Both the position numbers and the translations under genes were made by a program. From the NCBI GenBank assembly GCA_963768625.1, contig CAVYIK010000003.1, forward strand, positions 454,715 through 518,714: 64,000 nt of DNA, in the 5' to 3' direction. The first letter of the stretch is position 1; each line of letters begins with the position of its first letter. Positions 11,868 through 38,562 of this stretch are shown here, in pieces. The notes beneath the pieces were generated by a model. That model was not told where the DNA came from. It was given only the letters and a program-made list of their open reading frames with translations, and made no database searches. The stretch is from an uncultured bacterium (GTDB lineage: Bacteria; Patescibacteriota; Minisyncoccia; UBA6257; 2-01-FULL-56-20).

Positions 11868-11939
11868 GCCCCCGTAGTTCAACGGATAGAATATCTCCCT
11901 CCGAAGGAGGTGATTGAGGTTCAATTCCTCACGGGGGCA
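11868..11939 (+). tRNA. tRNA-Arg (anticodon CCG)
   Basis: Hand-folded cloverleaf. Acceptor GCCCCCG/CGGGGGC, D-arm GTTC..GAAT, anticodon stem TCTCC/GGAGG with loop CTCCGAA, T-arm TGAGG-TTCAATT-CCTCA, discriminator A. CCA is not encoded. Confidence 0.9.
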
Positions 11940-20781: not shown

Positions 20782-21087
20782 GGGGACGCACTGGTATTGA
20801 TGGGGATGCGGGATGGGTTTGCGGGCCGATGGCAACGCCGTAAGCGTTGCATCAACTAACTGCCAATCAAAAGGCGGCTCCAGCGTTCGCTTACGCGTAA
20901 CGTTGGGATCGGCGGATCCGGGTTCCTTGGGTCCATGTCCGGTCTTATATAAGGGGACTAGCGCGGGGTGGACGATTCTAAACCGCGCGCGAAAAACAGA
21001 ATCACGTTGCTAGTGTTCCACTAGACACGCCCGTAGACGGCCCATTCTCAGTATCTTCAGACGAGGGTTCGATTCCCTCCGTCTCCA
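20782..21087 (+). ncRNA. ssrA: tmRNA (SsrA)
   Basis: 5' GGGGACGCACUGGUAUUGAUGGGG. Acceptor GGGGACG pairs with CGTCTCC (21080-21086) including the G3:U pair. T-arm GAGGGTTCGATTCCCTC, discriminator A. Tag reading frame 20862-20900 encodes ANQKAAPAFAYA*. Confidence 0.85.
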
Positions 21088-22600
21088 CACCCCGTGAGTT
21101 AGAGATAGCAAAATGCTCAAAAACCCTTAAAGGAAGGGCTAACGGAGCGGTTCTAAATCCAATTCCTCGGTCATAGGAAAGCACACCCTCAAAAACGAGG
21201 TTCATTACAAGGTTCTTATCGCTCAAGTTGCCGTATTTCCACTGGCTATATGGGTTTTCTAGATAATTAAACACCATTCGCAAGGCGGTTCTAAACTCAA
21301 TTTTAGACTTCTTCGCCGGATCGTTATTTTCTTTCAGCTTTTCTTCCCGTGTTGCAAATTCTTCAATCTGCTTTTCATACTCAAGTCGGACACGATCATT
21401 ACTTGCCCGCTTCGCCAATTTAACGAGGTTTTTAATTTCATCCTCAATCCGCACAATTTCTCCCAATTCCTTCTTTTCGCTTGCGGCACGGTTTGCGATG
21501 CGCTTTCCCCATTGTTCATAAAGCATCGCTTCGCTGATCTTCAAGACGAGTGGCTTCGGCTTTATCTCTCGCAAGATGGTCTCAAATTGCCCTTCGATAA
21601 CACCAATCGGAATACTTTTTGTGTGTTCAGGGCAAGCAGTATTGTTGCAACGATAATATCCCCGCTTGTAGCCCTTCGTTTTTGTTGTATAGGAAGCCGT
21701 ATATTGACGACCGCAATTTCCGCACGCTACGAGTGTATGCCGCAGCGGAAAATCCTCTCGTATGTCCTTTCGTGTCCGCACCGGCCTACGTCCATCGAGC
21801 TTCGCGCAAATCTTTTGGAAGGTCGCCAAATCTATAAGCGGTTCGTGATGTCCTTGTCTCCGCGACACTTCCCAAGGCGTATATTCGATGAAGCCCGCGT
21901 ATATTGGGAGGCGGCTAAAAAGACGGCTCACCAACTGGAAATGGATTTTGTCTTTGCCGCAAAACTTTTCCGATTCGAGATAATGTAACACGTCGCCCTG
22001 CGTTTCAAACCGATCTACTGCAAACCCTTCGAGCGCAGTTTTAATTATCGCCGCTTCCGGTTCGTAAGGCGTTAAGAGCTTTCCATGTCCGGCTGTTTTG
22101 ACGTGTCGAAAGCCAGGTGGCGGACAAAACGGCCAGTAGCCAAGCTCCGTTCGAGCTTTTTGTTTCTGTATAACCTGCCGACGATTTAGTGCGCGATGGA
22201 GTTCAGCGTTGCCAGCCATAATAACCTCAACGTATTTCCCTTCTGGGCTATCATCAAAATCAAAATTTAAGCACTCTAGCTCCGTTTTACGATAATGAAA
22301 TGCCGCTCGCAATTTAATATGCATCTCAACATCTCGCGCCAAGCGTGAGATGTCGTCAAAAATGACGATATAGTTTTTATGAGGATGCTTGTCTATATGT
22401 TTAAGCAATTCCGTCATAGCGGGGCGACGCATAAAATCACCACCACCAGTAAAACTATCTCTAAAAACCTTCTCGATTTCATAGTTTTTCTGTTCGCAAC
22501 GAAGGCGGCATCGTTGCTCTTGGCTATCGAGGCCATGCCCTTCGGTTTTCTGCCGCTCGGATGAAACGCGGCAATATATTAATGCCTTTAGTTGGCTCAT
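21002..22600 (-). CDS. Large serine recombinase (integrase)
   Basis: Intact 532-aa ORF. Resolvase catalytic domain ALIYCRVSSERQ...DDISRLARD, a recombinase domain, zinc ribbon CGNCGRQY...YYRCNNTACPEH, and a coiled-coil. The last ~29 codons are antisense to the tmRNA 3' end. Confidence 0.85.
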   Translation of the reverse strand: MSQLKALIYCRVSSERQKTEGHGLDSQEQRCRLRCEQKNYEIEKVFRDSFTGGGDFMRRPAMTELLKHIDKHPHKNYIVIFDDISRLARDVEMHIKLRAAFHYRKTELECLNFDFDDSPEGKYVEVIMAGNAELHRALNRRQVIQKQKARTELGYWPFCPPPGFRHVKTAGHGKLLTPYEPEAAIIKTALEGFAVDRFETQGDVLHYLESEKFCGKDKIHFQLVSRLFSRLPIYAGFIEYTPWEVSRRQGHHEPLIDLATFQKICAKLDGRRPVRTRKDIREDFPLRHTLVACGNCGRQYTASYTTKTKGYKRGYYRCNNTACPEHTKSIPIGVIEGQFETILREIKPKPLVLKISEAMLYEQWGKRIANRAASEKKELGEIVRIEDEIKNLVKLAKRASNDRVRLEYEKQIEEFATREEKLKENNDPAKKSKIEFRTALRMVFNYLENPYSQWKYGNLSDKNLVMNLVFEGVLSYDRGIGFRTAPLALPLRVFEHFAISNSRGVETEGIEPSSEDTENGPSTGVSSGTLAT

Positions 22601-23057: not shown

Positions 23058-23188
23058 ATACACCAACTATGTTTAGAAAGCCAGCGCTTAGAGGGATTCC
23101 TTGTTAAACGCCTCATTCGGCTCTATCATCAGGTTATAACTTAATAAAAGTCGCCTAAACCTTGCAGTAATGTGGGGCATGGCGCAAA

Positions 23189-23285
23189 AACGTTTCAGCG
23201 TATAAAGCTCCTAGTCAGAGCACGCTGAAACGTCATAGTCCGAAAGGATTATGGGTTCGCAAGAACCGCTGGCTGGGAGCTTTAT
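23189..23285 (+). promoter_or_regulatory. Structured RNA leader: 16-bp helix enclosing two GNRA-capped hairpins, plus a competing 11-bp helix (candidate riboswitch or cis-regulator)
   Basis: Helix B is 23203-23218 with 23269-23284 (16 bp, 2 G-U). Hairpin 23234-23253 has an 8-bp stem and GAAA loop. Hairpin 23254-23267 has a 5-bp stem and GCAA loop. Helix A is 23190-23200 with 23223-23233 (11 bp). The G-U pairs and GNRA loops are valid only on the plus strand. Confidence 0.5.
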
Positions 23286-29675: not shown

Positions 29676-30113
29676 TTATCCTGCGGCGCGCATTTCCCGC
29701 TCATGGGAGCGCTTTTTTAGCGCCTCGCGCTGGTCGGATTTCTTCTTTGAGCGCCCGAGGCCGAGCGCGAGCTTTATAAAACCCCTTTGGAGGTAGGCAC
29801 GAAGCGGAACAAGCGTCCGTCCTTTTTCCTGGAGCGCGCCCGTCAGGCGTTTTATCTCTTCCTTTGTAAGCAGGAGCCGCCGCGAGCGATCCTCTTCGTA
29901 TCCTGCCGGAGTGTTCTTCGGTTGGTACGGCGGGATGTGGGAGTTTACGAGCCATGCCTCGCCGCCGCGGATAAGAACGCGGGCGCCCGCGATCTGGAAG
30001 CGGCCGCCCTTCGCACTTTTCACCTCATGACCCAAGAGCTCAATGCCGGCGTTGTAGGTTTCCTCGATGTTGTAATCGAATCCCGCCCGTTTGTTTTCCG
30101 CGATGTTCTCCAT
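29676..30113 (-). CDS. smpB: SsrA-binding protein SmpB
   Basis: The 145-aa sequence contains NKRAGFDYNIEETYNAGIELLGHEVKS...LLLTKEEI...GRTLVPL...G.IKLALGLGRSKK, which is typical of SmpB. Confidence 0.9.
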   Translation of the reverse strand: MENIAENKRAGFDYNIEETYNAGIELLGHEVKSAKGGRFQIAGARVLIRGGEAWLVNSHIPPYQPKNTPAGYEEDRSRRLLLTKEEIKRLTGALQEKGRTLVPLRAYLQRGFIKLALGLGRSKKKSDQREALKKRSHEREMRAAG

Positions 30114-30170: not shown

Positions 30171-30261
30171 AAAGAAAAAGGGCGGCAGGAGTTGCGCCAC
30201 CGGGGACGGAGCCGAGAGCTCCGGTAGAGTTCCCCGGCTTCTCCCACCGCCAGTTGCAACC
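30171..30261 (-). ncRNA. Candidate ~90-nt hairpin sRNA between smpB and argS
   Basis: Minus-strand promoter TTGCAA-16-TATAGT (30268-30295). A long imperfect hairpin spans 30181-30251 (11 + 7 + 6 bp). Two positions are G-U on the minus strand but C-A mismatches on the plus strand. Followed on the minus strand by CTTTTTCTTT. Confidence 0.35.
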
Positions 30262-30274
30262 AAGAACACTATAT

Positions 30275-31963
30275 ATGAAAAAGAGGATCTTGCAAATATT
30301 GAAAAAAGCGTTGGGCGCAGGCGCGCTGCCGGCCGAGGTTTCTGTCCCTGAAAAGGAGAATTTCGGGCATTACACGACGAACATCGCGATGCGGCTCGCG
30401 GGCGGCGGCGCGCCGCTCGCGCGGGCACAGGCGCTTGCGGAAAAAATAAAAAAGGCGGCTCCTGTGGGTTTTTTTGAAAAAGTGGAGGCCGTGCCGCCCG
30501 GCTTCGTGAATTTCTGGTTGAGTAAAAAAACGTTACAGGAGGAATTTCGGGATGTTGCGGGAGAAAAAGAGTACGGCAGGGGCAGCATCGGCGCCAAGAA
30601 GACGGTGATCGTGGAATATTCCGATCCGAACATCGCAAAGATGATGCACGTTGGGCATTTGCGGACCACGATCATCGGCGACGCGCTTGCGAACATCCTT
30701 GCGGCCTCGGGCTACAAGGTGGTCCGATGGAACTATCTCGGCGACTGGGGCACGCAGTTCGGCAAGCTCATTGCGGCATACAAACTGTGGGGCGACGAGG
30801 CGGCGATCAAAAAGAACCCGATCGAGGAACTGCAGAAGCTCTATGTCCGTTTCCATGACGAGATGAAGTCGAAACCCGAGCTTGAAAAGCGCGGCCAGGA
30901 AGAGTTCAAGAAATTGGAGGAAGGCGACGCGGGGAACAAGAAGCTTTGGGAACGGTTCAAGAAAGAATCACTTAAGGAATTTGAGAAAGCATACGAAACG
31001 CTCGGCGTGAAGTTTGATCTGTGGATCGGCGAGAGCTTTTTTGAGCCGGAGATGAAGCCGCTCGTCAAAGAACTTTCAAAAAAGAAGATCGTGGAGCGGA
31101 GCGAGGGATCGCTCGTCGTAAAACTGGACGATCAGGGCCTCCCGCCGGCGCTCATTGAGAAATCCGACGGCGCGAGCTTGTACCTTACGCGCGACATCGC
31201 GAATCTCCGCTATCGGCTCAAAAAATACAAGCCGGCGAAGATCCTTTATGTGGTCGGGAACGAACAGTCGCTCCACTTTGAACAACTTTTTGCCATCGCG
31301 AAGATATTGGGCCTTGATGCTGCGGAGATCAAGCATGTAAAATACGGCCTTGTTCTCGGTGAAGCGGGCAAGAAGCTTGCGACGCGGGAAGGGCGGACGC
31401 AGTTGCTTAGCGAGGTGGTTGACGAAGCGGTCGTGAAAGCGAGGGAGATCGTCCAAGAAAAGAGTCCGGACCTCTCCGATGTGGAAAAGCACGAGATCGC
31501 GTATGCGGTCGCGCTCGGCGCGCTCAAATACAACGACCTTAAGGAGAATCGCACGACAGATATTATTTTTGACTGGGATAAAATGCTTGATTTTACGGGG
31601 GACAGCGCGCCCTACCTCCAATATACCTACGCCCGCCTCACGAGCATCTTGCGCAAGGCAGGAAAGGCAGGAAAAGCGGATTTTGGCGCACTTGACACGG
31701 AACCCGAGCTCGGACTCATGCGGAAGATTTTTGAATTCCCGGACATTGTGGAGCGGGCGGGCGAACTGTATTCCACGAGCACGCTCGCCACGTATCTTTA
31801 TAAGCTGGCCGTCGCGGCAAACAAATTCTACGAGACCACTCCCATATTGAAGGATGAAAACGCGCCGCGCCGCAGCGCGCGCCTCGCGCTCGCGGGAGCC
31901 GCTGCACGAACGCTCCGCGTGGGCCTCGCGCTCCTCGGCATCAAAACGCCCGAGAAGATTTAA
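30275..31963 (+). CDS. argS: Arginyl-tRNA synthetase
   Basis: Intact ORF. Class I motifs PNIAKMMHVGHLR and the DALR anticodon-binding region (YLQYTYARLTSILRK). The start is taken at MKKRILQ, the second ATG of ORF 30254. Confidence 0.9.
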   Translation: MKKRILQILKKALGAGALPAEVSVPEKENFGHYTTNIAMRLAGGGAPLARAQALAEKIKKAAPVGFFEKVEAVPPGFVNFWLSKKTLQEEFRDVAGEKEYGRGSIGAKKTVIVEYSDPNIAKMMHVGHLRTTIIGDALANILAASGYKVVRWNYLGDWGTQFGKLIAAYKLWGDEAAIKKNPIEELQKLYVRFHDEMKSKPELEKRGQEEFKKLEEGDAGNKKLWERFKKESLKEFEKAYETLGVKFDLWIGESFFEPEMKPLVKELSKKKIVERSEGSLVVKLDDQGLPPALIEKSDGASLYLTRDIANLRYRLKKYKPAKILYVVGNEQSLHFEQLFAIAKILGLDAAEIKHVKYGLVLGEAGKKLATREGRTQLLSEVVDEAVVKAREIVQEKSPDLSDVEKHEIAYAVALGALKYNDLKENRTTDIIFDWDKMLDFTGDSAPYLQYTYARLTSILRKAGKAGKADFGALDTEPELGLMRKIFEFPDIVERAGELYSTSTLATYLYKLAVAANKFYETTPILKDENAPRRSARLALAGAAARTLRVGLALLGIKTPEKI

Positions 31964-32001: not shown

Positions 32002-35000
32002 ATGGAGGAAGAGAAAATACTGGCGTTCTGGGACTCGCATAAGACGTTCGAAAAAAGCTTGGAGAGGACGAAGGATGGCAAACCGTTCACGTTCTACGAC
32101 GGCCCGCCGTTCGCGACCGGTCTCCCGCATTACGGTCATATTCTCGCGTCTACGATCAAAGACGTAATACCGCGGTATCAGACGATGAAAGGACATTTTG
32201 TGCGCCGGCGCTGGGGTTGGGATTGCCACGGCTTGCCGATAGAAGAGATCGTTGAGCGGAAGCTCGGCATCTCGGGCAAAAAACAGATCGAGAAGATCGG
32301 CATCAAAAAGTTCAACGAGACCTGCCGGAGCATGGTCTTGGAGTATGCCGCGGAATGGAAAAAGATGGTTCGCCGCATCGCGCGCTGGGTGGAGTTTGAT
32401 GATTCCTATAAGACGATGGACGCGAGCTATATGGAATCCGTCTGGTGGGCGTTCAAAAAGATCTACGACAAGAAACTCGTATATGAAGGAAGAAAAGTGC
32501 TCCTCTATTGCCCTCGTTGCGAGACGCCCGTTTCCAACTTTGAGGTCGCGATGGATAACAGCTACAAAGACGTCACCGAGGAGTCAGTGACGGTGAAGTT
32601 CAAGATTGTCATTGAAGATCAAACAAAAGGACTCAATTTGCCACCGGATACATTCCTTTTGGCCTGGACAACTACCCCGTGGACGCTGCCTGGCAATGTT
32701 GCGCTTGCCGTGAACACCGATCTGGAGTACGGCGTTTATGAGCGCGGCGATGAAGCTTTCGTTCTCGCCGTGAGTAGGGCGGAAGCGTATGGCTTCCAAA
32801 ATCCGAGAGTCAGATTTCCCGGAAGCCAATTACGGGGAGTCGCATACGTGCCACTTTATAAAATTGCGGCAATGGAGAGCCAGAAATCCCACAAGGTCTA
32901 TGGCGCGGGCTTTGTGACGGCGGAGGATGGTACGGGCGTTGTCCATACTGCAGTGGTCTACGGCGAAGATGACTATAATCTTGGCATCCAGCAAGGCCTT
33001 CCCGTCGTGCCGATGCTTGATGAGAAGGGTATTTTCAACGACAAAGCACCAGAGTTCTTGCGCGGACAATACTTCAAAAAGGCGGATGCGCTCGTGATCG
33101 CGGACTTGGAAAAGCGCAGCATGCTCTTCAAGAAAGAGAAACATACGCACTCGTATCCGCACTGCTGGCGCTGCGGCAACGTGCTCTTTTATAACGCGAT
33201 ACCTGCGTGGTTTATCAATATCCAAAAGATAAAGCCGCAGCTTTTGAAGTCCAATAAAAAAGAGATCAATTGGTTCCCGGAGCACCTGAAGCACGGCCGC
33301 TACGAAAAGAGCGTGGAGGCGGCGCCGGATTGGAATATTTCGCGCAATCGCTATTGGGGGAACCCCATTCCGGTCTGGAAATGCGCTAGCTGTGATCATG
33401 AAGAAGTGGCGGGCAGCACGGAGGAGCTCGCCAAGCTCGCAGGCGGCGGGAAGAACCATTATTGGGTGATGCGGCATGGCCAGGCGGAAAGCAATATGTT
33501 CGACATTATCGATTCCGGGGAGAGAAAGTTCCTCCATCTCACGCCGACCGGCCGGAAGCAGGTCGAGACGTCTATCAAGAATTTCAAGGCGGAGCTCGCC
33601 CGGAAGCATAAAAAGATAGACCTCATCATTTCGTCAGACATCGTGCGTACCAAGGAGACCGAAGCGATCGATGAAAAAATATTGGGCGAGGAGAACGTGA
33701 TATTTGATAAGCGGTTGGAGGAGGTCCACTTGGGACCGACGCTCGTGGGTTACAAGGACAAGAAATATTTTGATCTTTTTCCCACCTACCGGATGCGTTT
33801 TGAGAAACGGCCTGAAGGAGGGGAATCATTGCGCGACCTCCGTGCACGCATGTGGGGATTCTTGGCCGATTGCGAAGATAAGTATGAGGGGAAGAATATT
33901 CTACTCGTCACCCATGACTATCCGTCCTGGATGCTCTTCCATACGGCCGAAGGATGGAGCGAAAGCCGCGCGATCGAAGAAAAAGAAAAGCGGGGAGACG
34001 ATTTCATTAATTTCGCCGAGGTGCGCGAGCTTGAGTTCGCAAAGCTACCCAGGAATGATGCGGGAGAGGTTGATCTCCACCGGCCGTACATTGATGAGGT
34101 CGTGTTCCCGTGCCCATCCTGCAAGGGCACAATGAAGCGGACGCCGGAGATCTTTGATTCCTGGATGGAAGCGGGTTCAATGCCTTTCGCGGAATATCAC
34201 TATCCCTTTGAGAACAAGAAGCTTTTTGAGAGCCGTTTTCCGGCGCAGTTCGTCGCCGAGTACATCGCGCAAACTCGGGCGTGGTTCTACGTGATGCACG
34301 TCATCTCGCTCATCCTCTTCGACAAGGCGCCCTTCGAGAACGTCGTCACGACCGGGACAATCCTCGCGGAGGACGGTTCCAAGATGAGCAAATCAAAAGG
34401 GAACTTCCCGGACCCGTGGATCGTGCTTGAAAAATACGGCGCCGACAGCTTGCGATTCTATCTAATGGACTCGGTTGTCATGCAAGCGGACAACCTGAAC
34501 TTTTCCGAGAAGGGCGTGGAGAGCGCCCACCGGAAGGTGTCGCTCCTGCTTTGGAACGTGTATCAATATTTTGCAACCTATCATGGCGAGTCCGCGCCGG
34601 GCACCGTCGCGTCGGCCTCGGAGAACATCCTTGACCAGTGGATTGGCGCGCGCACTGCGGAGCTCGTCCAGGAGGTGACCAAATGCCTGGATGCATATGA
34701 CACGGTGCACGCGACGCGGGCGATCCAAAATTATATTGATGATCTTTCCACGTGGTACCTCCGCCGCAGCCGCAAGCGGAAGGACGCCGCGTTCTTCGGG
34801 ACGCTGCACGGCGCGCTTCTTACGGCAAGCAAGGTGATCGCGCCGTTCACGCCGTTCCTCGCAGAGACGTTATATGGGCGGTTGAAGGGCGCCGGAGCCG
34901 AGGAATCTGTCCACTTGACAGCATGGCCCAGCGCCGAGGTTGCCATGTCCGTAGGCGAGCGGAAGAAACTTATGGAATTCATGACCGAGACGCGGCGACT

Positions 35001-35466
35001 CGCGAGTTTGGCGCTCGCAAAGCGCGCCGAGGCGGGCGTGAAAGTGCGGCAGCCGCTCGCGAAGCTCATCATCAAGGGCACGGCCTCGCGGTTGGCTAAG
35101 GAATTCGTTGATATCCTCGCAAGCGAAGTGAACGTGAAAGAAGTCGTGTTCGATCCGGCGTTGAAAGACGAGATGGAGATCGACACCGCAATATCGACGG
35201 AACTGCGCGACGAGGGATTGCTCCGCGAGGTCGCAAGGATGGCCCAGGGGTTGCGCCAGAAAGCGGGGCTTCAGCCGAAAGATAAAATAGTCCTCATGCT
35301 CGCGCTTCCCGCGGAGATAAAAGACGCCGTTTCAAAACACGAAACAGCGCTGCGCTCCGACGTCGGCGCGAAATTAGTGGAATATGGCAAATCCGAAAAA
35401 TTCACCGCCGAAGCGGCGGCGAAGATAGACGGGCAGGAGGTTTGGATCGCGATACGGAAGGTTTAG
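32002..35466 (+). CDS. ileS: Isoleucyl-tRNA synthetase (type 2-like) carrying an inserted histidine-phosphatase domain
   Basis: Intact 1154-aa ORF. Motifs PPFATGLPHYGHIL (HIGH), WTTTPWTLPGN (CP1 editing) and KMSKSKGN. Residues ~484-689 form a His_Phos_1-like domain (RHGQAESN...VRTKET...LLVTHDYP) between the Zn-knuckle region and DLHRPYID. Confidence 0.9.
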   Translation: MEEEKILAFWDSHKTFEKSLERTKDGKPFTFYDGPPFATGLPHYGHILASTIKDVIPRYQTMKGHFVRRRWGWDCHGLPIEEIVERKLGISGKKQIEKIGIKKFNETCRSMVLEYAAEWKKMVRRIARWVEFDDSYKTMDASYMESVWWAFKKIYDKKLVYEGRKVLLYCPRCETPVSNFEVAMDNSYKDVTEESVTVKFKIVIEDQTKGLNLPPDTFLLAWTTTPWTLPGNVALAVNTDLEYGVYERGDEAFVLAVSRAEAYGFQNPRVRFPGSQLRGVAYVPLYKIAAMESQKSHKVYGAGFVTAEDGTGVVHTAVVYGEDDYNLGIQQGLPVVPMLDEKGIFNDKAPEFLRGQYFKKADALVIADLEKRSMLFKKEKHTHSYPHCWRCGNVLFYNAIPAWFINIQKIKPQLLKSNKKEINWFPEHLKHGRYEKSVEAAPDWNISRNRYWGNPIPVWKCASCDHEEVAGSTEELAKLAGGGKNHYWVMRHGQAESNMFDIIDSGERKFLHLTPTGRKQVETSIKNFKAELARKHKKIDLIISSDIVRTKETEAIDEKILGEENVIFDKRLEEVHLGPTLVGYKDKKYFDLFPTYRMRFEKRPEGGESLRDLRARMWGFLADCEDKYEGKNILLVTHDYPSWMLFHTAEGWSESRAIEEKEKRGDDFINFAEVRELEFAKLPRNDAGEVDLHRPYIDEVVFPCPSCKGTMKRTPEIFDSWMEAGSMPFAEYHYPFENKKLFESRFPAQFVAEYIAQTRAWFYVMHVISLILFDKAPFENVVTTGTILAEDGSKMSKSKGNFPDPWIVLEKYGADSLRFYLMDSVVMQADNLNFSEKGVESAHRKVSLLLWNVYQYFATYHGESAPGTVASASENILDQWIGARTAELVQEVTKCLDAYDTVHATRAIQNYIDDLSTWYLRRSRKRKDAAFFGTLHGALLTASKVIAPFTPFLAETLYGRLKGAGAEESVHLTAWPSAEVAMSVGERKKLMEFMTETRRLASLALAKRAEAGVKVRQPLAKLIIKGTASRLAKEFVDILASEVNVKEVVFDPALKDEMEIDTAISTELRDEGLLREVARMAQGLRQKAGLQPKDKIVLMLALPAEIKDAVSKHETALRSDVGAKLVEYGKSEKFTAEAAAKIDGQEVWIAIRKV

Positions 35467-36520: not shown

Positions 36521-38460
36521 CTATATCTCGATGATGACCGGCAAGATCATCGGCCGGCGCTTGGTCTTCGTGTAAAGATACTGCCCGATCTGGTCGCGGA
36601 TGAGCGTCTTTAAATAGTCGGGTTCCATTTCGCGGTAGGAGGGGAGCCGCTGCATGAGCGCGCGGATGCGCTTGCGGATCTCGTCCAAAAGCTCCTGGCT
36701 CTCTTTGAGGTAGATGAAACCGCGCGAGATGATGTCGGGATTTTTGAGCAGCCGGCCCTTGTCGCGGTCGATCGTGAGGATGATGACGATCATGCCTTCC
36801 TGCGCGAGCGCGCGGCGGTCGCGGAGCACGACTTCTTCCACGTCGCCCACGCCCAGGCCGTCCACCATCACGTAGAATGCCGGGCACGGTTTCCTTGGTC
36901 ATCGTGAAATCGTCTTTCGTGAGTTCCGCCACCTGGCCGTTGTCCATCAAGATGACGTTCTCTTTGGGGATGCCGACTTCCCGCGCCGAAATGCCGTTCG
37001 CGGCGCGCATGAAGTAATAGCCGTGCACGGGCACGAGGAATTTCGGTTTGATGAGCTTCATGACGAGCTTCAGGTCTTCTTTCGGCGCATGGCCGGAGGA
37101 GTGGATGTCGACGAGCGCTGAGTGGTAGACGATCGCGCCCTGCCGCGCGAGATTGTCCTTCACCGACTGCACGCTCCGTTCGTTGCCCGGGATGATGGAG
37201 GACGAAAGCACCATCGTGTCGCCCGGCTTGATCTTCACGTGCCGGTGTTCGCCGTTGATGATCTTCATCAGGCTTGCGTTCGATTCGCCCTGCGCGCCGG
37301 TCGAGAGGATGAGCACCTTATCGTCCCTCACTTTGTTGGCTTCTTCAATGGGGATGATCGTGCCTTCCTTCGCCTTGATGAAGCCGAGCGATTGCGCGAT
37401 TTGGATGTTCGTCTTCATGGAGTAGCCGGTGAGCGCGACCTTGCGGCCGAGGCGTTCGCAGATCTTGATGATCTCCGCGATGCGGGTGAGGAGCGATGCG
37501 AACGTGGCGACGATGATGCGCCCTTCGGCCGCCTTGAAGATCTCCTCAAGGTTTCGTTCCACTGTTTTTTCCGAGAGCGAGTGGCCTGGCTTTTCGGCAT
37601 TCGTGCTGTCCACCATGAACGTGTGGACGCCCATTTTCCCGATCGCTTCGAACTCTTCAAGTCCTTGCGGCTCGTCCTTATCGTTATAGTCCACGCGGAA
37701 GTCGGCGAAGTGGACGATGTTGCCGATCGGGCGTTTTCATGAGAACGCCGGTCGTTTCGGGAATCGTGTGCGGCACGCCGAAGAAAAGCGCGCTGAAATA
37801 GTTCGAGATTTTTATCTCGTCGCCGTTTTTCACGATGATCACGTTCATCTTCGGCGAGTTCGGAAAGTCCTCCTGCCGCCGTTCGATGATCGCTTTCGTG
37901 ATGGAGGTGGCGTAGATCGGGGGATTGCCGAGCTTCTGGAGCAGATGTGGCAGGGCGCCGATGTGGTCGTAGTGGCCGTGCGTAAGAATGATCGCCTGGA
38001 CGTTCTGTTTTTTCTTCTCGAGATAGGCGATGTTCGGGATGATGTAGTCAATGCCCGGCGTTTCTTCTTCCGGGAATTGCAAGCCGACGTCGATCACGAC
38101 GATCTCGTTCTTGTATTCCAGAAACATGCAGTTCCGGCCGACCTCTTCAAGGCCGCCGAGCGGTACGAAGCGAAGGACGTCGTCGCGGCGTTCCCGCGTG
38201 TTCACGGCTGCCGCGTTCTCTCCCATCGGTTCGCCGTGCATCGGCTCGCGCGGTTTGATCGCGCTTTTCGGGGTGTGGACCGGATTTCCCGCGGAAGTGG
38301 GGCGCCCAGAACGGCCGCCGCGTCCTCCGCCTGGACGCGAAAATCGCTGCGGCGGGGTTCCTGAAGGCCGCGGCCCGGCGGGCGCAGCAGGCGCTGGCCT
38401 TGGACGGATCTCCGGCGGCCGTATCCTCGGCCGCTCTTTCTCTTCGATTTTTTTGATCAT
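36521..38460 (-). CDS. rnj: Ribonuclease J with Arg/Gly/Pro-rich N-terminal extension, two frameshifts
   Basis: Motifs LGGLEEVGRNCMFLEY, ILTHGHYDHIGALP, beta-CASP, HSSGHA and a C-terminal domain. Fragments 37684-38460, 36462-37694 and 36521-36871. The break near 37729-37731 is at a G3/C3 run. Confidence 0.85.
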
Positions 38461-38478: not shown

Positions 38479-38562
38479 TGGGCAGGGAGGGATTTGAACC
38501 CTCATGACCTTGCGGCCACAGCGACCTGAACGCTGCGTGTCTGCCAGTTCCACCACCTGCCC
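38479..38562 (-). tRNA. tRNA-Leu (anticodon CAG)
   Basis: Minus strand reads GGGCAGGTGGTGGAACTGGCAGACACGCAGCGTTCAGGTCGCTGTGGCCGCAAGGTCATGAGGGTTCAAATCCCTCCCTGCCCA. Long variable arm. Anticodon loop TTCAGGT. Confidence 0.9.

Follow-up and report, generated by a model that had tools for sequence, protein, structure and literature searches.

What is a histidine phosphatase doing inside an essential aminoacyl-tRNA synthetase (aaRS)? The question is raised by a 64,000-nucleotide stretch of DNA from an uncultured bacterium of the Patescibacteriota (contig CAVYIK010000003.1, positions 454,715–518,714; hereafter the window), in which the ileS gene for a type-2 isoleucyl-tRNA synthetase (IleRS) occupies positions 32002–35466 of the forward strand. 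As a preliminary description of the sequence had claimed, this gene is a single uninterrupted open reading frame (ORF) of 1154 amino acids, and the roughly 206 extra residues noticed in it are nucleotides 33451–34068 (forward strand), which correspond exactly to residues 484–689. This segment is a complete PhoE-like branch-1 histidine phosphatase domain of the phosphatase branch, and its nesting in IleRS is a clade-wide trait, not a one-off. It belongs to a Patescibacteria-wide family that occurs either as a gene for a protein of ~190 amino acids in an argS–hp–ileS operon, where hp is the standalone phosphatase gene, or built into synthetases.

Position, Fold, and Active Site of the Nested Domain

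The boundaries of the domain were set by comparison with the IleRS structures 1ILE (Thermus thermophilus) and 8C8U (P. megaterium IleRS2), and by Pfam, AlphaFold2 (AF2) models, and Foldseek. The window protein matches the sequence of 1ILE with E = 2e-219. In the phmmer alignment, residues 3–478 of the query are paired with residues 14–478 of 1ILE, and the match restarts at query residue 690, opposite residue 488, leaving ~211 residues at the insertion site in the window IleRS versus ~9 in Thermus (near enough to the ~15 given in the preliminary description). The chain of P. megaterium IleRS2 runs from 478 to 485 at this site, with ~6 residues. The insert is flanked by Cys461/Cys464 and Cys704/Cys707, which correspond by alignment to Thermus Cys461/464/502/504. 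The motif CASC (33382–33393, forward strand) is thus the N-terminal half of a split zinc knuckle in the third connective polypeptide subdomain (CP3), and CPSC (34111–34122, forward strand) is its C-terminal half. In a MAFFT alignment of 117 full-length insert-bearing homologues, from which the conservation counts out of 117 were taken, C461 and C464 are kept in 117 and 108 sequences, respectively, and C704 and C707 in all 117. The CP2–CP3 linker APDWNISRNRYWG (residues 441–453; 33322–33360, forward strand) lies 30 residues upstream of the insertion point. The homologous linker of yeast IleRS (453-ARDWNVSRNRYWG-465) lines part of the pocket for tRNA A76 and reveromycin (PMC7955072). CP3 binds zinc in Thermus IleRS, but not in the Candida or Staphylococcus aureus enzymes, and its topology differs in each (PMC7191050); it is therefore a peripheral, structurally plastic element, and not the Rossmann core itself. 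The earlier statement that a phosphatase is inserted in the catalytic core of IleRS thus holds for the insertion, but the site is the zinc-knuckle subdomain at the periphery of the connective polypeptide.

The segment is assigned to the histidine phosphatase superfamily by profile search, and its predicted fold agrees. Pfam His_Phos_1 (PF00300) matches residues 488–656 (33463–33969, forward strand) with E = 7e-21 and 75.2 bits in the whole protein, and with E = 2.5e-22 and 79.9 bits in the excised segment (cutoff 21.7). An AF2 model of the excised domain has a predicted local distance difference test score (pLDDT) of 95 and a predicted TM score (pTM) of 0.91. The model of the full protein (pLDDT 88, pTM 0.80) has the same secondary structure at residues 482–690. 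When it was compared with solved synthetases by Foldseek, target-normalized TM scores were 0.90 to 1ILE, 0.81 to 8C8V, and 0.83 to 7D5C, and superposition of the synthetase part on 1ILE leaves ~210 extra columns unaligned. The AF2 models thereby support the view that the nested domain is a discrete excursion from the CP3 subdomain. Foldseek places the domain model with probability 1.00 and TM 0.67–0.74 beside 6S2Q, 4IJ6, 1H2E, and 9MMH, and the relatives found include Rv2419c, a riboflavin-pathway histidine phosphatase, PspA, TIGAR, and PhoE.

Among solved structures, the domain profile matches PhoE best (1EBB/1H2E, E = 5e-32), followed by PspA (4IJ5, 5e-29) and CobC (6NRU, 9e-24), whereas true mutases match it over the N-terminal half only. 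Identity as a phosphoglycerate mutase was rejected, as NF038349 scored 53.8 bits (cutoff 225) and PRK03482 scored 35.8 bits (cutoff 261). Of the initial label 'phosphoglycerate mutase-like', the fold is upheld and the mutase identity is not. Nor are the specific phosphatase equivalogs reached: scores were 36.6 bits for CobC (TIGR03162, cutoff 162.9), 29 for PspA (NF045917, cutoff 350), and 21.4 for SixA (TIGR00249, cutoff 74.5). Every NCBIfam equivalog cutoff is missed, and therefore the domain fits no named enzyme family.

Translation gives the four motifs first reported for the insert: RHGQAESN from residue 491, SSDIVRTKET from 544, RLEEVHLG from 571, and LLVTHDYP from 634. The RHG motif comprises R491, the nucleophile H492, and G493 (33472–33480); the Arg and His are present in 117/117 homologues, and the Gly in 112, with Ala in the other five. 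R549, the second arginine of the phosphate pocket, in an S-x-x-x-R-T motif (33646–33648), and H638, the second catalytic histidine, in a V-[ST]-H motif (33913–33915), are both invariant (117/117), as is E608. The predicted proton donor E574, in the RLxE motif (33721–33723), is Glu in 112 homologues and Asp in five. All of these codons lie on the forward strand. The insert is otherwise the least conserved region of the protein, with a mean top-residue frequency of 0.58 versus 0.80 in the synthetase catalytic core. The R-H…R…(E/D)…H set is kept in 84/84 domain copies examined across all sites and hosts, while elsewhere the domain drifts to ~30% identity. Judged from this conservation, the active site appears intact and under purifying selection, and the domain in the window IleRS is apparently active as a phosphatase; the invariance of Arg-His…Arg…His within a fast-evolving domain agrees with the initial view that activity is probable.

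The host enzyme also looks functional. The window IleRS scores 815.5 bits against TIGR00392 (ileS; cutoff 621.4), and the insert splits this match into two stretches. Besides His_Phos_1, Pfam detects tRNA-synt_1, Anticodon_1, and a C-terminal DUF5915, which is typical of type-2 IleRS. The HIGH signature (HYGH, residues 43–46; 32128–32139, forward strand) and the KMSKS signature (residues 794–798; 34381–34395, forward strand) are intact and are conserved in 116–117 of the 117 homologues. The editing-site motif WTTTPWTL (residues 222–229) is invariant among homologues.

Spread of the Family and Its Association With Synthetases

All of the 120 best full-length homologues (53–76% identity, 1100–1240 amino acids) combine PF00300 with IleRS domains. 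The sources are named as Minisyncoccia, Paceibacterota, Liptonbacteria, Jorgensenbacteria, Doudnabacteria, and 'Patescibacteria group', and the NCBI label on insert-bearing homologues is just 'class I tRNA ligase family protein'. The site of the domain is unchanged in more distant copies (33–42% identity), including some that lack the zinc cysteines. A syntenic 270-kb contig carries the same gene, interrupted by frameshifts only, and a genome scan with a single protein query found 13 insert-bearing genomes. The window protein itself is on record on a 588-kb NCBI/ENA contig, and its 90% identity cluster is represented by a 208-amino-acid fragment. The domain is absent from 45 other type-2 IleRS loci, which have 3–6 residues at the site. 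These insert-less enzymes are from Streptomyces and relatives, Lachnospiraceae, Cloacimonadota, Chloroflexia, Rummeliibacillus, and methanogen-related archaea, and also from several lineages of the candidate phyla radiation (CPR), namely Portnoybacteria L029, L051, L052, and L061. Absence from these 45 loci and from all solved IleRS rules out that the segment is a normal IleRS subdomain, a point on which the alignment had been expected to decide.

That the arrangement is an artefact, either through chimeric misassembly or because ileS has trapped an intein or mobile element, has a negligible probability. Indel errors are probable elsewhere in the window, and genuine inteins are present in IleRS of related lineages. 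The architecture, however, recurs in more than 100 independent assemblies (NCBI, JGI, ENA, and Logan), and therefore chimeric misassembly, which the preliminary description had named as a risk, is excluded. The window ORF is colinear with its homologues, and there is no compositional break at the junctions (GC fraction 0.513 in the insert and 0.552 in the rest of the gene). Searches for flanking repeats and for phage relatives returned no meaningful repeat and no relative. An intein was rejected: the junctions, between GGGK and NHYW and between DAGE and VDLH, have neither Cys or Ser at the N-terminal junction nor His-Asn followed by Cys, Ser, or Thr at the C-terminal junction, and Pfam finds no intein (Hint domain) in the window IleRS.

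Two observations relate to these artefacts. The RNase J gene downstream of trpS (window positions 36524–38460, reverse strand) is split over three reading frames, and an intact homologue maps onto it in three pieces (residues 67–223 to 38199–37729, 221–507 to 37736–36876, and 505–624 to 36883–36524); it is either a pseudogene or, more likely, the product of two assembly indel errors. IleRS proteins of ~1530 amino acids with an intein of ~550 amino acids (Pfam Intein_splicing, approximately residues 190–742) are encoded at L132:5558–10180 and L133, which are operon-type CPR loci, and at L036:881–5455 from Aenigmatarchaeota, and the intein position is identical in the CPR bacterium and the DPANN archaeon.

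The domain also exists as a separate protein. When 1.84 billion cluster representatives were searched exhaustively with a hidden Markov model (HMM), 680 of them reached E ≤ 1e-30, and the top 150 were classified as IleRS-embedded copies, IleRS with two copies, and standalone proteins of ~190 amino acids. A second profile search found more than 100 standalone members, from Patescibacteria, which JGI annotates as 'broad specificity phosphatase PhoE'. At four loci (L073–L076) the gene order is smpB (reverse strand), argS, hp (195 amino acids), ileS (963–967 amino acids, insert-less), and recO, with gaps of 2–29 bp, and at L067 hp abuts ileS. In the window the same smpB, argS, ileS synteny is found, with the phosphatase nested in ileS. 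Here, argS (30254–31963, forward strand) lies directly upstream of ileS, at the place where in relatives the standalone phosphatase gene either stands between argS and ileS or is fused to the 3′ end of argS, and smpB (29676–30113, reverse strand), upstream of argS, is a synteny marker conserved in the window and related loci.

Gene order was counted in 80 metagenome loci recovered with an alignment of the standalone family, of which 24 have the nested form and 56 have standalone genes. Downstream sequence was available for 49 standalone genes, and ileS follows immediately in 43/49 and within 2.3 kb in three more, in a sample that is biased to relatives of an operon member, although its loci are only 39–52% identical to the query protein. 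The remaining three are the upstream gene of a tandem pair and two genes without a nearby synthetase. In about three-quarters of the loci argS is directly upstream of the standalone gene. Clustering of the 57 standalone ORFs at 90% identity leaves 52 groups. The tandem pair (L146:1762–2947) lies directly upstream of an ileS without insert and consists of two standalone phosphatase genes, the second of which abuts ileS. At another locus, a standalone copy upstream of argS (L014:12–662) accompanies a copy nested in ileS.

Within IleRS, the domain is found at three loops. Sites were defined by Pfam and NCBIfam coordinates together with landmark motifs. Site 1, which is occupied in the window, breaks the tRNA-synt_1 profile at position 265. 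Site 2 is the loop EYHYPFENKKLFESR (residues 731–745; 34192–34236, forward strand), which is unoccupied in the window; relatives P0162, P0188, P0287, and P0158 carry a His_Phos domain there, with profile breaks at 314–327, and in P0158 this is a second copy. Site 3 is the loop GESAPGTVASASEN (residues 862–875; 34585–34626, forward strand), just before Pfam Anticodon_1, which is likewise unoccupied in the window and is filled in P0152, P0162, P0188, and P0221. Tandem domain pairs at site 1 are present in P0167, P0189, and P0245. The 90% cluster of the P0162 type (1419 amino acids), with sites 2 and 3 filled, counts six members, and their contigs reach 1.06 Mb. One locus of this type (L077, ctg43262 of ENA ERZ25074195) places the gene beside those for adenylosuccinate synthetase, DAHP synthase, a SufBD fragment, and a large SLH-domain protein; such a gene set is not typical of CPR, and thus the lineage may lie outside Patescibacteria. 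In one CPR contig (CAZPPV010000037.1; L009:2120–4855), IleRS has two different nested enzyme domains, namely a RimL/MccE-type GNAT domain (Acetyltransf_3, residues 282–408) in the editing-domain region and a His_Phos domain (residues 661–824) at site 1.

Three other hosts were found. P0218 is a complete ArgRS with a C-terminal phosphatase domain, encoded after smpB on two 70-kb contigs that were assembled independently; P0145, from two short contigs, resembles ValRS and has four domain copies, the last truncated; and P0235, on one 3.7-kb contig, has a Sua5/YciO/YrdC (TsaC) domain followed by the phosphatase. The ArgRS copy is 45–50% identical to standalone and operon members, while the site-2, site-3, tandem, and ValRS copies are only 31–38% identical to everything and group by position. 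Neighbor-joining trees were built for the domain and for the IleRS core with the insert removed; they are unbootstrapped and mutually inconsistent. In the domain tree, the window copy falls in the main site-1 clade, interleaved with standalone genes. In the core tree, CPR IleRS is monophyletic, with the nested and operon states intermingled and at least three to four switches between them.

Further observations concern the surroundings of ileS in the window. The ileS (end 35466) and trpS (end 35463) genes converge, and their 3′ ends overlap by 4 nucleotides (35463–35466), which is very compact packing. Rfam detects tmRNA (115 bits; 20782–21090, forward strand), LOOT RNA (RF03000, 93.8 bits; 23152–23267, forward strand), and two tRNAs (11868–11939, forward strand, and 38479–38562, reverse strand). 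The tmRNA is ~9 kb from its partner gene smpB.

Proposed Function and Competing Explanations

Both roles that were suggested at the outset, action on a nucleotide by-product and tRNA-end chemistry, are plausible. The explanation preferred here is that the domain is an active phosphohydrolase, probably acting via a phospho-His492 intermediate: R491, R549, H638, and N498 would hold the phosphate, and E574 would protonate the leaving group. We infer that selection ties the domain, physically or transcriptionally, to adenylate-forming enzymes of the tRNA pathway. At these host enzymes the domain would hydrolyse a small phosphorylated by-product as it is released, most likely pyrophosphate (PPi) or else another terminal phosphoanhydride or nucleotide species, and local removal of the by-product would pull amino-acid activation forward. 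Such clearance is favoured because IleRS, ValRS, ArgRS, and TsaC all convert ATP to an acyl-adenylate and PPi, a chemistry that aaRSs and TsaC have in common. The domain is attached in CP3, in a Rossmann loop, in a loop of the anticodon domain, or at a C-terminus, or else has a gene to itself. These varied attachment points and the presence of two to four copies per protein suggest that co-localization or co-expression outweighs precise geometry, and if geometry is of secondary weight, a diffusible small substrate fits better than a fixed macromolecular one. As a whole, an active domain tied to adenylate-forming enzymes and clearing their by-product is the best explanation that we can offer, held tentatively and at somewhat less than an even chance; clearance of PPi or of another such by-product, as the specific mechanism, is favoured yet on the doubtful side.

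Several points weigh against this explanation. We know of no branch-1 histidine phosphatase that is a pyrophosphatase (PPase), and ordinary soluble PPases are, to our knowledge, near-universal. The closest solved relatives act on phosphomonoesters, namely 3-phosphoglycerate, aryl phosphates, phosphoserine, α-ribazole phosphate, and glucosyl-3-phosphoglycerate. Some standalone members are distant from synthetase genes, beside SecA or Mur ligase, and the conserved gene order may partly reflect inherited synteny and not function. Each of the fusions to TsaC and ValRS is a single observation, from short contigs, and the ArgRS fusion could be a trivial read-through between neighboring genes. In addition, an IleRS-embedded copy in a 223-amino-acid fragment on an 8.6-kb NCBI/ENA contig (P0004) reads …ILIVTYEGP…, with Tyr for the second catalytic His, and therefore activity may not be universal; this gene call is also without the RHG region and is possibly a degenerate, inactive variant.

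The main rival to by-product clearance is repair, or 'chemical proofreading', of the tRNA 3′ end, in which the phosphatase would strip a 2′- or 3′-phosphate or a 3′-pyrophosphate from A76 and so allow charging; the flexible CCA end would then have two places of hydrolysis, the second in the manner of CP1 editing. Charging is blocked when RelA-SpoT-type toxins (FaRel2 and CapRel) pyrophosphorylate the CCA end of tRNA, and in the Escherichia coli CCA-adding enzyme the HD domain has 2′-nucleotidase and phosphatase activity; blocked 3′ ends are thus a real problem. Site 1 is in CP3, a short way past the linker whose yeast counterpart lines the A76 pocket, IleRS, ValRS, and ArgRS all bind tRNA acceptor ends, and the connective polypeptide already hosts a nested 3′-end hydrolase, the insertion point of which can differ, as LeuRS shows. 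The substrates of relatives include nucleotide-like phosphomonoesters such as that of CobC. Set against this, site 3, in the first loop of the anticodon domain, and the ArgRS C-terminus are not obviously in reach of A76; a rare event would hardly call for two to four copies per protein; TsaC makes threonylcarbamoyl-AMP and does not handle the tRNA 3′ end; and an enzyme of general repair should have no particular preference for ileS. We consider 3′-end repair rather unlikely. An equally unlikely account is that the protein is a housekeeping metabolite phosphatase (for phosphoserine or a sugar phosphate, for example) that merely neighbors ileS, the fusions being near-neutral products of genome streamlining and the co-expression involving no biochemical coupling. 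The JGI name of the standalone members, the metabolic roles of the closest solved relatives, and the copies beside unrelated SecA and Mur ligase genes all fit this account; stop-codon loss between neighbors explains the ArgRS fusion, and CPR genomes are compact, with IleRS tolerating other inserts there (GNAT and inteins). Simple read-through cannot, however, nest one gene within another, and nested copies are known from three IleRS loops, from tandem pairs, and from a ValRS-like protein; the hosts that are not neighbors (ValRS and TsaC) are again ATP-dependent enzymes of the tRNA pathway; and the hp–ileS order is kept in most of the diverse loci counted above despite their low identity.

Two further accounts, which are both improbable, differ in whether the domain turns over a substrate. 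A protein phosphatase could undo inhibitory phosphorylation of the synthetase, for instance by HipA-like toxin kinases acting at the ATP site or KMSKS loop of class I aaRSs. HipA phosphorylates GluRS and HipT phosphorylates TrpRS, branch-1 members include the protein phosphatases SixA, PGAM5, and Sts-1, SixA gives a weak NCBIfam match to the domain, and sites 1–3 bracket the KMSKS loop in sequence. Hip-type targeting is not known for IleRS, ValRS, or ArgRS, however, and nothing points to such kinases here; a toxin antidote would be expected to be sporadic and not conserved class-wide, and the closest relatives act on small molecules. Alternatively, a non-catalytic module, of the same low probability, could have been kept for its fold, which would replace or extend CP3 structurally or would serve as a regulatory sensor or binder of phosphate or the tRNA backbone. 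The plasticity of CP3, whose topology is different in every solved IleRS, the avidity that multiple copies could give, and the loss of the second His in the fragment described above are compatible with such a module, but the nucleophilic His, both Arg residues, the second His, and an acidic proton donor are kept in all 117 homologues and all 84 copies, and the standalone relatives are ordinary single-domain enzymes.

A bolder proposal can also be made. The PhoE-like family may be an overlooked working partner of class I aaRSs in Patescibacteria, which would give IleRS, besides its synthetic and editing sites, a third active site for checking or restoring a substrate's chemical state, for example by stripping a 3′-phosphate or a toxin-added 3′-pyrophosphate from the CCA end before charging. 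This is unlikely, marginally more so than 3′-end repair alone. If it were true, the repeated capture of the domain into IleRS at three loops, ValRS, ArgRS, and TsaC would record strong selection for coupling.

Relation to Known Systems and Biological Meaning

The host enzyme resembles other type-2 IleRS (1ILE and 8C8U; the eukaryote-like, mupirocin-resistant type) in having a Rossmann fold with HIGH and KMSKS, CP1 editing, CP2, and CP3 subdomains, a helical anticodon-binding domain, and DUF5915, and its CP3 is zinc-binding as in Thermus IleRS. It differs from all solved or described members in the enzyme domain of ~200 residues that separates one Cys pair of the CP3 zinc knuckle from the other. 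The guest shares fold, size (~190–200 amino acids), and catalytic residues with PhoE (YhfR of Geobacillus stearothermophilus), the metal-independent phosphoserine phosphatase PspA, CobC, and Rv2419c. These are free-standing metabolic enzymes, however, with only 21–24% identity to the domain, which is nested in or operonic with synthetases.

Extra domains within the connective polypeptide have precedents. In IleRS of the NCBIfam family NF040702, a GNAT domain is nested in the connective polypeptide, as is the phosphatase here, and the doubly occupied IleRS described above has both; the GNAT domain differs in fold, chemistry (acetyl transfer), and site, as it lies in the CP1/editing region (model positions ~277–491), in agreement with the position of the GNAT domain in the doubly occupied enzyme. 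A literature search found no paper describing the function of GNAT-IleRS. The CP1 editing domain of IleRS, ValRS, and LeuRS is likewise a hydrolytic domain nested in a class Ia connective polypeptide, with an insertion point that differs by lineage, and in LeuRS-A and LeuRS-B it occupies alternative insertion points (PMC11580382). Unlike CP1, which is universal and ancient and cleaves an aminoacyl ester, the His_Phos domain is lineage-restricted, is predicted to cleave phosphate esters or anhydrides, and can also be encoded by a gene of its own.

Branch-1 histidine phosphatases are covalently joined to a second enzyme in PFK-2/FBPase-2 and in the mycobacterial RNase H/acid phosphatase (PRK07238, Rv2228c type), and PRK07238 is among the best NCBIfam matches of the domain. 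In these proteins, unlike in IleRS, the domains are joined end-to-end and not nested, and no aaRS is involved. In some eukaryotes, fusions of ATP sulfurylase, APS kinase, and PPase join a PPi-releasing enzyme to a pyrophosphatase. The tethering of a product-clearing hydrolase to an adenylate-forming enzyme is the logic of the favoured mechanism, but those fusions have the family-I metal-dependent PPase fold, and PPase activity of the present domain is only hypothetical.

The preliminary description knew of no earlier account of such an arrangement, which is consistent with our full-text literature search: no description of an aaRS–histidine phosphatase architecture was found, in a search that missed most papers in subscription journals. 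Few enzymes have been studied as thoroughly as the aaRSs, yet a curated catalogue of aaRS accessory domains (editing, tRNA-binding, GST, WHEP, and others) contains no phosphatase (PMC11580382). The sequences have long been public yet uncharacterized; host and guest each belong to known families, and it is the combination that is new to the literature searched. For annotation, the case is a warning, as a bifunctional enzyme goes unrecognized under the name 'class I tRNA ligase family protein'. It is also of use to protein engineers, since nature has here placed one domain successfully at several sites of the same essential enzyme.

The nested domain, the operon, the three loops, and the fusions to ArgRS, ValRS, and TsaC are independent lines of evidence for a functional link, and the phosphatase and the synthetases seem to work together in a way that has not been described. 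This association could reveal a new form of quality control or product clearance at the synthetase, and it points to an unrecognized need of translation in the CPR bacteria, which are ultra-small, depend on hosts, and account for much of bacterial diversity.

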